Shown here one piece after another: positions 31,057 through 33,484 of a DNA stretch of 64,000 bases. A model generated the notes under the pieces. It saw nothing but the letters and a program-made list of their open reading frames with translations, was not told where the DNA came from and did no database searches. The number at the start of each line of letters is the position of its first letter. The first letter of the stretch is position 1. The DNA comes from an archaeon (GTDB taxonomy: Archaea; Nanobdellota; Nanobdellia; Pacearchaeales; UBA284). A program made the position numbers and the translations under genes. The DNA is taken from positions 126,413 to 190,412 of the forward strand of contig CP070794.1 in assembly GCA_020343435.1 (NCBI GenBank). The letters run 5' to 3'.

Positions 31057-33219
31057 ATGTCTAGAGAGGATCAAATAATAAAAGAGCGTTTAAGAAAAAT
31101 AGAAGAGTTAAGAAAACAAGGGATTAATCCTTATCCTTACAAATTTGATAAGAAAAACTACTGTGAAGAGCTACAAAAAAAGCACTCTAAACTAAAAAAA
31201 GAACAAGAAGCTAAAGGAACGGTAAAAATAGCTGGAAGAATCTTGGTTATAAGGAATATGGGAAAAATTTGTTTCGGTAAATTACAAGATAATACTGGAC
31301 AAATACAAGTTGTCTTACAAAATCAAAAAACTCCTGAAAAAGAAATTAAATTTTTCAAAAAATACATTGACTCTGGAGATATTTTAGGAGTAGAAGGTTC
31401 TATATTTAAGACAAAGAGAGGAGAATTATCTGTTTTAGCTAAAAAAATAACCCTCTTAACTAAATCTATAAAACCTTTACCTGAAAAATGGCATGGATTA
31501 CAAGATAAGGAAGAAAGATACAGAAAAAGGTATCTAGATTTAATTATGAATCCCAAAGTTAAGGAATTATTCTTAAATAGACAAAAGATTGTTAATGCTA
31601 TTAGAGAATTTATGGAGATTAAGGGATTTACAGAAGTAGAAACACCAATTTTACAATCAATTTATGGTGGGGCATCAGCAAATCCCTTTGAATCTAATCT
31701 AAATGCTTTAAATATGAAAGTCTACATGAGAATTTCTAATGAACTTTACTTGAAAAGATTAATAGTTGGCGGATTTGAAAAAATATTTGAATTTTCAAGA
31801 GACTTCAGAAACGAAGGTATTGATAGATTACATAATCCTGAATTCACACAAGTTGAAACCATGTGGGCTTATGCGGATTATGAAGATAACATGAAATTCT
31901 GTGAAGAAATGGTTAGTTTCATAACTAAAAAAATTCATGGAAAAACAAAGATAAAATTCCAAGATAAGGAAATTGATTTTAAAACACCATGGAAAAGAAT
32001 AAAATTCTTAGATGTTATTAAAAAACACACAAAAGCAGATTTCTCTAAAGTAAAAAAAGTAGATGAAGCTAAGAAGATAGCTAATAAATTAAACGTAGAC
32101 ATAACTAATTGTGAAAGTGTTGGTGAAATAATAATAAATGTTTTTGAAGAACTAGTGCAAGATAAAATAATACAACCAACAATTGTTTATGATTATCCTT
32201 ATGAAGCAGTAGGATTAGCAAAATCTGGAGAAAATAAGAAATTTGTAAAATCTTTTGAACCAATTGTCAATGGTTGGGAACTTGGATTATCTTACTGTGA
32301 ACAGAATGATCCTCAAGCATTAAAGGAATACTGGAAAGAGGCTGAAGAAAAATACAAAAGAGGAGATATCGAAGCACAACCAACAGATCCTGATTTCATC
32401 AATGCCTTAGAAATAGGAATGCCCCCAACATCTGGCATGGGAATGGGAATAGATAGATTAACTATGTTAATGACAGATCAAACTTCAATAAGAGATGTTT
32501 TATTTTTCCCATTTATGCGACCAGAAAAACCATTAAAAGTTCCTTCTCAAAAAGAAAAAAGAACAGATATGAAAAGAATAAAAGAAGTTTTTATTTCTCC
32601 TGAAGCTAGAAAAATTGGATTAAAAACAGGATATGCTATCATTTCTGGAGTTAAGATATATAAAAAAAATCCTGGACTTGAAAAATTAAAAAAATCATTA
32701 AAAGCTAAAAGAGATAAGAAAAAAATTGAATGCATGCAAAAAGCTTTCAGAGCTTTTGGAGTAGATCCTACTAAAAGAGCTCCAAGTGCAGAAGCTCTAA
32801 TCAAAAGAGTAGAATCTGGAAAAGACATCTATAACATCAATACGTTAGTTGATGCTTATAATTTATCTTCTGTAAAAGAAAATTTACCAATGGCAGCATA
32901 TGATTTAGAAAAAGTTGATTTCCCAATAACCTTAAAAGAAGCAAAAGGAGAGGAGATAACCTTCATTGGTGGAGAAAAAAAGAAAACTCAACCAGGAGAA
33001 ATAGTTTACGCAGATGAATTCGAAATATTATGTTTAGATTTTAATTATAGAGATTGTAATAAAACAAAGATAACTGAAAAAACAAAAGAAGTTATCATCT
33101 TTGTTGATGGTTGTGAAGGAATAAGCAATAAAGAAATTTTATCTGCATTGAATAATACTTGTGACTTAATAATCAAGTTCAATGGTGGAAAAGTTATGGA
33201 AAAAAAGGTTGTAGAATAA
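31057..33219 (+). CDS. lysS: Class II lysyl-tRNA synthetase fused to a C-terminal B3/B4 (PheT-like) tRNA-binding domain
   Basis: N-terminal OB-fold (..IAGRILVIRNMGKICFGKLQDNTGQIQVV..). Class II motifs (..FEFSRDFRNEG.., ..GMPPTSGMGMGIDRLTMLMTD..). Residues about 540-720 (..KAFRAFGVDPTKRAPSAEALIKRV..INTLVDAYNLSSVKENLPMAAYDLEKV..) resemble the B3/4 domain. Confidence 0.85.
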   Translation: MSREDQIIKERLRKIEELRKQGINPYPYKFDKKNYCEELQKKHSKLKKEQEAKGTVKIAGRILVIRNMGKICFGKLQDNTGQIQVVLQNQKTPEKEIKFFKKYIDSGDILGVEGSIFKTKRGELSVLAKKITLLTKSIKPLPEKWHGLQDKEERYRKRYLDLIMNPKVKELFLNRQKIVNAIREFMEIKGFTEVETPILQSIYGGASANPFESNLNALNMKVYMRISNELYLKRLIVGGFEKIFEFSRDFRNEGIDRLHNPEFTQVETMWAYADYEDNMKFCEEMVSFITKKIHGKTKIKFQDKEIDFKTPWKRIKFLDVIKKHTKADFSKVKKVDEAKKIANKLNVDITNCESVGEIIINVFEELVQDKIIQPTIVYDYPYEAVGLAKSGENKKFVKSFEPIVNGWELGLSYCEQNDPQALKEYWKEAEEKYKRGDIEAQPTDPDFINALEIGMPPTSGMGMGIDRLTMLMTDQTSIRDVLFFPFMRPEKPLKVPSQKEKRTDMKRIKEVFISPEARKIGLKTGYAIISGVKIYKKNPGLEKLKKSLKAKRDKKKIECMQKAFRAFGVDPTKRAPSAEALIKRVESGKDIYNINTLVDAYNLSSVKENLPMAAYDLEKVDFPITLKEAKGEEITFIGGEKKKTQPGEIVYADEFEILCLDFNYRDCNKTKITEKTKEVIIFVDGCEGISNKEILSALNNTCDLIIKFNGGKVMEKKVVE

Positions 33220-33286: not shown

Positions 33287-33484
33287 ATGGTAGAAGGATA
33301 TTGCGTTGTATGCAAAGAAAAAGGCGTTAAAATAGACAATCCTGTCATCAGTCAGACAAAACGTGGAGGATTTATTGCTAAAGGAAAGTGCAGTAAATGT
33401 AAAAAAACAACTGTATGTGCTATGATATCTAAAGAAAACGCAGAAAAAGCAATAACTAACGGTGAAGCAAAAAAAGGATATTAA
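33287..33484 (+). CDS. Small zinc-ribbon protein (4 Cys: CxxC...CxxC)
   Basis: 65 aa, CVVCKEK...CSKCKK. Strong RBS aaggaggtaaaATG and an upstream AT-rich TATA-like tttataaa. Confidence 0.4.
   Translation: MVEGYCVVCKEKGVKIDNPVISQTKRGGFIAKGKCSKCKKTTVCAMISKENAEKAITNGEAKKGY

Follow-up and report, generated by a model that had tools for sequence, protein, structure and literature searches.

A CtdA-like B3/4 module joined to lysyl-tRNA synthetase in archaea and bacteria, a candidate editing domain for tRNA(Lys)

A 64,000-nucleotide (nt) stretch of an archaeal contig (CP070794.1, positions 126,413 to 190,412; hereafter the window) encodes a class II lysyl-tRNA synthetase (LysRS-II) that runs on, in the same reading frame, into a B3/4 module resembling CtdA, a canavanyl-tRNA(Arg) deacylase reported in 2023 as the first B3/4 editing protein known to stand alone (PMC10018355). 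We found the same module linked to LysRS of class II and of the unrelated class I in several archaeal and bacterial lineages, with pocket residues that are alike for both kinds of partner. Homology and conservation make it fairly probable, in our judgement, that the module acts as a tethered post-transfer editing aminoacyl-tRNA deacylase for mischarged tRNA(Lys). GenBank holds the identical protein as UCD21089.1 (MAG: lysine--tRNA ligase [archaeon]; MAG, metagenome-assembled genome), on a contig of 647,887 bp, and fusion genes of this kind are currently annotated merely as 'lysine--tRNA ligase'. The nearest relatives (Woesearchaeota, Nanoarchaeota, and Pacearchaeota) and a gene for the Hjc resolvase, two genes downstream of the fusion open reading frame (ORF), assign the organism to the DPANN archaea. 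Its features are collected in the table.

Table. Features of the LysRS-B3/4 fusion ORF, in window coordinates (aa, amino acids)
Feature	Position	Strand	Evidence or remark
Whole ORF: class II LysRS, linker, CtdA-like B3/4 module	31057..33219	+	720 aa, single uninterrupted frame; TAA at 33217-33219
OB-fold anticodon-binding domain of LysRS-II, aa 56-134	31222..31458	+	Pfam PF01336 (tRNA_anti-codon), E 2.7e-18
Class II catalytic core (tRNA-synt_2), aa 151-487, including motif 3 GMGMGIDRLTMLMTD	31507..32517	+	Pfam PF00152, E 4.8e-79
Disordered Lys/Glu-rich tether, aa 483-508 (~25 aa)	32503..32580	+	pLDDT < 50 in the full-length model
A5-G-A6 homopolymer tract, immediately 5' of the join	32549..32560	+	Three-frame translation, bases checked
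Internal in-frame ATG (Met505), start site of stand-alone homologues	32569..32571	+	Alignment with P0001-P0005; junctions of L001, L010, L021
Complete CtdA-like module, aa ~510-720	32584..33216	+	AlphaFold2 model and full-length Foldseek match to CtdA
Pfam B3_4 core, aa 562-689	32740..33123	+	PF03483, E 1.1e-21, 77.7 bits (gathering cut-off 29.3)
Asn602, equivalent to CtdA Asn105 and PheRS-beta Asn254	32860..32862	+	Alignments; 97% conserved in 42 LysRS-linked domains
Pocket strand A613-A614-Y615-D616 versus CtdA G116-G117-E118-N119	32893..32904	+	Acidic E118 replaced by an aromatic residue
Pocket motif C659-L-D661-F-N663-Y664-R665-D666 versus CtdA C166-R-R168-W-N170-W171-R172-Q173	33031..33054	+	Alignments

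Residues 1 to about 491 are, by sequence, a full class II LysRS. They carry the OB-fold domain and the class II core, and residues 5-491 exceed the equivalog thresholds of the NCBIfam lysS models, with 564 bits against TIGR00499 (lysS_bact, cut-off 427.6) and 631 bits against NF001756 (PRK00484, cut-off 468). Motif 3 (GMGMGIDRLTMLMTD) lies at about residues 460-474 and the LysRS body stops near residue 491, which agrees with the initial annotation, made from the sequence alone, in placing a complete class II core with motif 3 ahead of the extension. The tether that follows is made up of the former C-terminal tail of LysRS and the former N-terminus of the B3/4 protein. The GC content of the extension (~0.30) is the same as that of its surroundings.

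The extension had also been proposed to contain a B3/4 domain of the type found in PheT, and the Pfam match bears out the domain at a level that chance does not explain; scanned by itself, the tail again matches B3_4 (PF03483, E 9.7e-23). AlphaFold2 (AF2) modeling of residues 504-720 gave a confident structure (mean pLDDT 93.1, pTM 0.89), which Foldseek matched at a probability of 1.00 both with CtdA and with over 25 chains of the phenylalanyl-tRNA synthetase (PheRS) beta subunit. The best structural matches are the two solved CtdA proteins, from Salmonella enterica (PDB: 9MKL, TMq 0.84, E 4e-16) and Pseudomonas canavaninivorans (PDB: 9F7E, TMq 0.83, E 1e-14), followed in the fold ranking by bacterial PheRS beta editing domains with TMq of about 0.6. 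These two are likewise the nearest solved proteins by sequence (E 2e-8 and 2e-7, versus 0.02-0.5 for PheRS beta). Because the Foldseek alignments span 223-226 columns of the 226-227-aa CtdA chains, thus the whole chain, the extension as modeled amounts to an entire CtdA-like protein, some 210 residues long, that reaches beyond the B3/4 core alone. Likeness to PheT therefore stands at the level of the B3/B4 fold and the Pfam family, with CtdA-type proteins the closer kin. The bacterial PheT model (pheT_bact) reaches only 29-31 bits on the ORF against a cut-off of 402, and the B3/4 domain is accompanied by LysRS domains only, with no PheT-type embedding in B1/B2/B5-B8. The span first assigned to the extension (32670-33219, residues ~538-720) falls within the module, although the folded unit begins earlier, near residue 510 (nt ~32584).

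Conservation in the module is concentrated in its amino-acid pocket. In CtdA, the pocket is formed by N105, G116, E118, C166, and Q173; Asn105 is essential and is the only residue common to the CtdA and PheRS editing sites (PMC12449066). The most conserved positions across the 42 LysRS-linked modules are D599, N602, Y651, D661, N663, Y664, R665, D666, and G685 (92-100% each), all pocket-lining, with D661, N663, Y664, R665, and D666 at 92-97% in the LysRS-linked clade. Proteins of this C-terminal LysRS-linked clade, the window protein included, share the signature [P/S]x[A/G]A[Y/F]D ... [C/T/N]xDxNYRD, and CtdA itself shares PxGG[E/D][N/D] ... CxxWNWR[Q/E] with the fusions to arginyl-tRNA synthetase (ArgRS) and with two N-terminal LysRS fusions (see below). 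The CtdA-1 pocket residues G116, E118, W171, and Q173 (Q or E) are not matched in the window protein, which has A613, Y615, Y664, and D666 at these sites; the clade as a whole has F or Y at position 118 and D at position 173. The position of CtdA Cys166 is occupied by Cys659 in the window and varies between C, T, and N in the clade. Judged on these residues, the conservation pattern is that of a working enzyme with a specificity of its own, neither a degenerate binder nor a canavanine-specific CtdA.

This pattern bears on the possibility that the module is a non-catalytic tRNA-binding appendage, which captures the acceptor end of tRNA(Lys) for charging or hands Lys-tRNA on. RNA-binding domains are common additions to synthetases, the tether is flexible, some fusions bear a further tRNA_bind domain, and the B3/4 fold also occurs in non-enzymatic contexts such as LRRC47 (Foldseek match 8xp3). 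However, conservation peaks in the pocket and not on the surface, and includes the Asn essential for hydrolysis by CtdA (PMC12449066); all characterized relatives (CtdA and PheRS B3/B4) are hydrolases; and it is hard to see what purpose mere binding would serve in those members of the clade that stand alone. We thus regard a purely binding role as improbable.

A search with the full protein recovered LysRS-B3/4 fusions of 713-744 aa at 48-57% identity (P0036, P0037, P0040, P0048, P0093) and a 913-aa fusion with an additional HD domain (P0039). In these diverged fusions the linkers vary in length and sequence and the internal Met is lost. P0036 is present in an NCBI MAG and in an ENA contig, P0048 in two JGI samples, and P0093 on three contigs. 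Since diverged relatives carry varied linkers and several occur in more than one assembly, the LysRS-II-B3/4 architecture is genuine and recurrent. In other relatives the two genes are separate. The 22-kb contig L001 (P0005) encodes a 501-aa LysS, followed after a 2-nt gap by the B3/4 start codon and then by an HD-domain gene and hjc, a gene order that matches the synteny of the window, and in L010 and L021 lysS and B3/4 abut as separate genes in different frames. Other close relatives lack the module altogether (see below), and it is accordingly an accessory element that was gained, lost, split, and fused inside this lineage. The comparison with related LysRS that the initial annotation had called for thus portrays an extension that is accessory and lineage-variable, yet recurrent and real.

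Several observations on individual relatives stand beside these. The Aenigmatarchaeota MAG L025 has an in-frame stop inside B3/4, at a position that is a Lys codon in the near-identical P0093 (IYSDQE*VITRD versus IYSDQEKVITRD), which may reflect either a true nonsense mutation or an error in the sequence. P0009 (L002-L004) is a stand-alone B3/4 protein of 234 aa with no lysS beside it, which JGI names 'lysyl-tRNA synthetase class 2', a label presumably carried over from fused references. Two MAGs labeled 'uncultured Gammaproteobacteria' (L024, L044) have LysRS-II-B3/4 modules that group with those of bacteria of the candidate phyla radiation (CPR), and these taxonomic labels may be unreliable. 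We discarded P0138 (654 aa, LysRS-II plus HD) as evidence, as its LysRS breaks off before motif 3 into the HD domain, probably through a deletion or an assembly artefact.

The link reaches beyond class II. A profile of the module, run against the species genomes of GTDB, yielded 80 loci. Eight have a class II lysS directly upstream, either fused (L011, L012, L013, L024, L044, L025) or adjacent (L010, L021). In ten others, the module lies at the end of, or beside, a long ORF that is not class II LysRS. Pfam identified these partners as LysRS of class I (PF01921, E 1e-87 to 1e-130) that end in a C-terminal B3_4, and they come from Chloroflexi (L014, L019), Woesearchaeota (L016, L020), Roizmanbacteria (L023), and CPR3 (L026); tblastn evidence adds three class I fusions (L015, L017, L022), L036 has a class I lysS and B3/4 as adjacent genes, and P0028 is a further class I fusion (PF01921). 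The two classes of LysRS have unrelated folds, and no other synthetase is found in both classes (PMC7373986). Genome reduction had been suggested as the setting for the fusion, but it is not what the fusions have in common: the same module sits on class I LysRS in free-living Chloroflexi, besides CPR and DPANN.

A profile built without any class I fusion, searched against 1.84 billion representative proteins, gave 591 matches at E <= 1e-30, and we counted architectures among the best 150 of them. LysRS-I-B3/4 accounts for 22 (12 full-length, 10 fragments) and LysRS-II-B3/4 for 12 (10 full-length, 2 fragments), some with an extra HD or DUF2000 domain. The module is N-terminal in one B3/4-LysRS-II, one B3/4-LysRS-I, and three B3/4-ArgRS proteins (one with a tandem B3/4 pair), and it occurs once with tRNA_bind; no synthetase partner besides LysRS and ArgRS was found among these 150. 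In a distance tree, the C-terminal modules form one clade in which those linked to class I and those linked to class II are interspersed; within Woesearchaeota, for instance, the class II fusions P0048 and P0093 cluster with L016 and L020, which are class I fusions. This intermixing suggests that selection keeps the link to a LysRS of either fold.

The N-terminal fusions belong elsewhere in the family. P0221 (764 aa, class II) and P0276 (791 aa, class I) carry a CtdA-type B3/4 ahead of LysRS, with Asp in place of E118 and Glu in place of Q173 in the pocket, and are a second, independent lineage of LysRS-linked modules. Three proteins (P0162, P0251, P0253) carry a B3/4 with the true CtdA signature N-terminal on ArgRS, in P0162 as two tandem copies. 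From their sequence these look like cis-acting canavanyl-tRNA(Arg) deacylases, and we found no description of such B3/4-ArgRS fusions in the literature covered.

These distributions also speak to whether chance alone brought the module into co-transcription or fusion with lysS, in which case it would be either a common CtdA orthologue or a trans-editing factor of general use with no tie to lysine. CtdA is its nearest characterized protein and Cys659 aligns with CtdA Cys166, yet the GGE...WNWRQ signature is replaced by AAY...FNYRD and the true signature resides in the ArgRS-fused proteins. Moreover, the partner is a LysRS of either class in 36 of the best 150 representatives and ArgRS only in the CtdA-type branch, and chance would not choose two unrelated LysRS folds in four topologies. 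We consider this explanation very unlikely. Instead, sequence comparison separates the clade of the module from CtdA-1 and probably places it in the 'CtdA-2' group of a 2025 study, which divides the family into the characterized CtdA-1 and a CtdA-2 of unknown function in Chloroflexi, Bacillota, and archaea, and mentions no fusions (PMC12449066). That study reports Cys166 as not conserved in CtdA-2, whereas the window module has Cys659.

The join in this particular genome needs separate consideration. The ATG of Met505 coincides with the start of stand-alone homologues and is, by alignment, a relic of a separate B3/4 gene. When one A is deleted from the homopolymer tract at 32549-32560, LysRS ends in ...QKEKEQI-TGA and its stop codon shares bases with the ATG at 32569 (ATGA), a typical arrangement of coupled genes. 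The fusion could therefore stem from an error of assembly or sequencing, or from a frameshift of very recent date, with an extra A in A5/A6 merging what is biologically a two-gene operon with a trans-acting factor. The in-frame ATG is kept exactly at the stand-alone start, which older fusions lack. A tail-only search gave 34 homologues, all stand-alone proteins of about 200-240 aa, and the nearest are 58-70% identical; the closest LysRS relatives (up to 73% identity) are unfused too, and the fusion protein is known from a single contig. Against an artefact, all 720 codons are open with no other defect, and the same two genes are reproducibly fused in several related lineages, which argues that a fusion is viable. 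The 13-residue tail preceding Met505 is of natural LysRS length, in that unfused relatives stop 0-25 aa past FPFM(K/R)PEK, and nothing argues positively for a sequence error. The junction sequence, sought with A tracts of variable length in JGI metagenome contigs, had no matches. On balance we think an artefactual or very recent join unlikely; it would also leave the biology unchanged, because the genes are adjacent and co-oriented in relatives and truly fused in others, and it would be compatible with the proposed editing function, as the two functions are coupled either way. In L010, the long C-terminal tail of lysS contains an A9 homopolymer (L010:320-335) shortly before the separate B3/4 gene begins. 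Several relatives have such homopolymer-rich lysS/B3-4 junctions, at which single-base indels may ease both fusion and fission.

If the module is a tethered deacylase, LysRS would load tRNA(Lys) and the module would sample the aminoacylated CCA end, in the same dimer or right after release. It would hydrolyze the ester bond of a non-cognate amino acid that LysRS fails to reject and spare Lys-tRNA(Lys), while the tether, or the tight operon coupling in relatives, would raise the local concentration of the deacylase at the synthetase it checks. We infer post-transfer editing from homology, the recurrent fusion to LysRS-I and LysRS-II, and the conservation of the pocket, and with it a hydrolytic activity, tRNA(Lys) as the carrier, and the class of substrate. 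By analogy with CtdA and canavanine, the substrate would probably be a cationic look-alike of lysine, which is suggested by the conserved Asp residues D661 and D666 and the aromatic residue at position 615. Candidates would be antimetabolites of the thialysine/oxalysine type, hydroxylysine, arginine or homoarginine, and small neutral amino acids that LysRS reportedly mischarges. Esters of ornithine and diaminobutyrate lactamise spontaneously as a matter of general chemistry, which argues against both as substrates. Nor do we favor ornithine or diaminobutyrate under a double-sieve logic ('smaller than cognate'), given that LysRS-II clears ornithine pre-transfer (PMC7373986).

Several points weigh against an editing role of this kind. 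CtdA-2-type proteins are explicitly uncharacterized (PMC12449066), and the specificity of CtdA itself is not transferable, because E118 and Q173 are not conserved (Tyr615 and Asp666). The need for an extra sieve is not obvious, because pre-transfer cyclisation by LysRS-II already clears homocysteine, homoserine, and ornithine (PMC7373986). The AF2 model of all 720 residues (pTM 0.49) shows two folded units with no predicted fixed orientation, and thus no fixed geometry between the two active sites. The class I fusions place the module after the anticodon-binding end, far from the acceptor stem. The module is also dispensable, because many close relatives manage without it: at the same syntenic site, L090 and L093 have lysS only and L091 has lysS followed by HD. 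Finally, a Pfam scan of 113 ORFs flanking 57 stand-alone homologues (Bathyarchaeia, Hadarchaeota, and others) revealed no LysRS, tRNA, or lysine theme except in L036, where the class I lysS is adjacent; these neighborhoods reflect lineage synteny only (Big_3_5, OMP decarboxylase, HAD, ABC-2). The link to LysRS is therefore a property of one clade and not of the whole family.

Further domains accompany the fusion in some relatives. Class II LysRS is a known source of diadenosine tetraphosphate (Ap4A). An HDIG-type HD protein of about 195-205 aa follows lysS or lysS-B3/4 in several relatives (L001:6642-7226, L005:7144-7731, L091:4452-5072) and forms a third domain in LysRS-II-B3/4-HD proteins of 913-1072 aa (L011:4640-5245, P0039, P0155, P0187). 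It matches the generic HDIG domain of NCBIfam only and is absent from the window; a role as a dinucleotide or aminoacyl-adenylate hydrolase may be a lead. The extra modules of some other fusions are tRNA-related: tRNA_bind (PF01588) in LysRS-II-B3/4-tRNA_bind proteins (L025:978-3623, P0177), and DUF2000 (PF09391, with a weak match to PDB 2GAX) in LysRS-II-B3/4-DUF2000 proteins (P0165, 906 aa, and P0214). DUF2000 belongs to the peptidyl-tRNA-hydrolase-2-like superfamily. Within the 64-kb window we looked for homologues of HD, class I LysRS, ArgRS, and DUF2000 and for a tRNA(Lys) gene, and found none. The gene for the Hjc resolvase (hjc) lies two genes downstream of the fusion ORF. Between them, a 65-aa Cys-rich ORF (CxxC...CxxC; 33287-33484, + strand) has a strong GGAGG ribosome-binding site and no match in NCBIfam; a 55-aa ORF occupies the same site in L001, L090, and L093.

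Editing domains mark synthetases that need a second sieve, and LysRS has so far been seen as reliant on its active site, with pre-transfer cyclisation in class II. What is new here is the synthetase: the editing fold is a known one, but LysRS was not known to bear it. Its occurrence in four fusion topologies on two unrelated catalytic folds is a Rosetta-stone signal, which would indicate that some organisms face mischarging related to lysine so severe that a proofreader dedicated to it became fixed. We give an even chance to the wider proposition that LysRS of several archaeal and bacterial lineages acquired a dedicated CtdA/B3-B4 editing module, acting in cis or in trans and independently recruited to class I and class II, which removes a natural lysine antimetabolite or a recurrent mischarging product from tRNA(Lys). 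If true, this would establish a new aminoacyl-tRNA deacylase specificity, provide a function for the uncharacterized CtdA-2 branch, and turn B3/B4 modules into a general means of proofreading for the synthetases of basic amino acids (ArgRS and LysRS). The fusions offer an entry point to the archaeal and Chloroflexi branch of CtdA and a natural experiment on the shuffling of editing modules between synthetases.

We found no description of a LysRS-B3/4 fusion in the searchable literature, whose coverage is incomplete and makes this absence of evidence rather than proof, in line with the initial annotation, which knew of none. No post-transfer editing domain is listed for LysRS (PMC7373986; AARS Online Table 2, PMC11580382). 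Known quality control of LysRS addresses the same problem, errors of LysRS, by two routes: LysRS-II cyclises homocysteine, homoserine, and ornithine before transfer, and ProXp-ST1/ST2 edit Ser/Thr-tRNA(Lys) in trans (PMC7373986). In contrast to the module, these use the synthetic active site or a factor of the INS/YbaK fold, with neither a B3/B4 nor any LysRS-fused domain. LysX of Mycobacterium (LysRS-MprF) similarly combines a bacterial LysRS with a second enzymatic domain that uses Lys-tRNA(Lys), but that domain, MprF, has no relationship to B3/B4 and passes lysine on to lipid (PMC9437257). The families AlaRS/AlaX, ProRS-INS/YbaK/ProXp, and ThrRS-N2/ThrRS-ed offer parallels in organization, with the hydrolase present as a separate gene, an adjacent gene, or a domain serving its own synthetase (PMC7373986, PMC11580382), although they belong to other fold families.

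The B3/B4 domain of PheT shares with the LysRS module the Pfam family PF03483, the fold, post-transfer editing in cis within a synthetase (proposed for LysRS), and the water-positioning Asn (E. coli N254). Similarity is much weaker than to CtdA (E 0.02-0.5, TMq ~0.6), and the PheT domain is embedded in a multidomain subunit, whereas the LysRS module is terminal on a flexible tether. Among the editing residues of E. coli PheT (R244, N254, H265, G318, E334), only the Asn is demonstrably shared, via the CtdA alignment, and none of PheRS R244, H265, G318, and E334 is common to CtdA-type proteins (PMC12449066). CtdA is the closest counterpart. The fold agrees along all ~220 aa, N-terminal extension and helical insert included (TMq 0.83-0.84), and the two share the essential Asn, the Ser, Leu, and Arg of the PSAEALxxR helix, N170, R172, and, in the window module though not throughout its clade, a Cys at position 166. 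CtdA is free-standing, whereas the module is fused or operon-linked to LysRS; identity is only 18-22%, with E118 replaced by Tyr/Phe, Q173 by Asp, W171 by Tyr, R168 by Asp, and G116 by Ala/Gly, and the substrate of the module presumably resides on tRNA(Lys), that of CtdA on tRNA(Arg). The COG3382 proteins under the ykkC (guanidine) riboswitch in Clostridiaceae (PMC3766115) are of the CtdA-1 type and not of the clade of the module. Within the family, the sister group that bears the true CtdA signature on ArgRS parallels the LysRS fusions.

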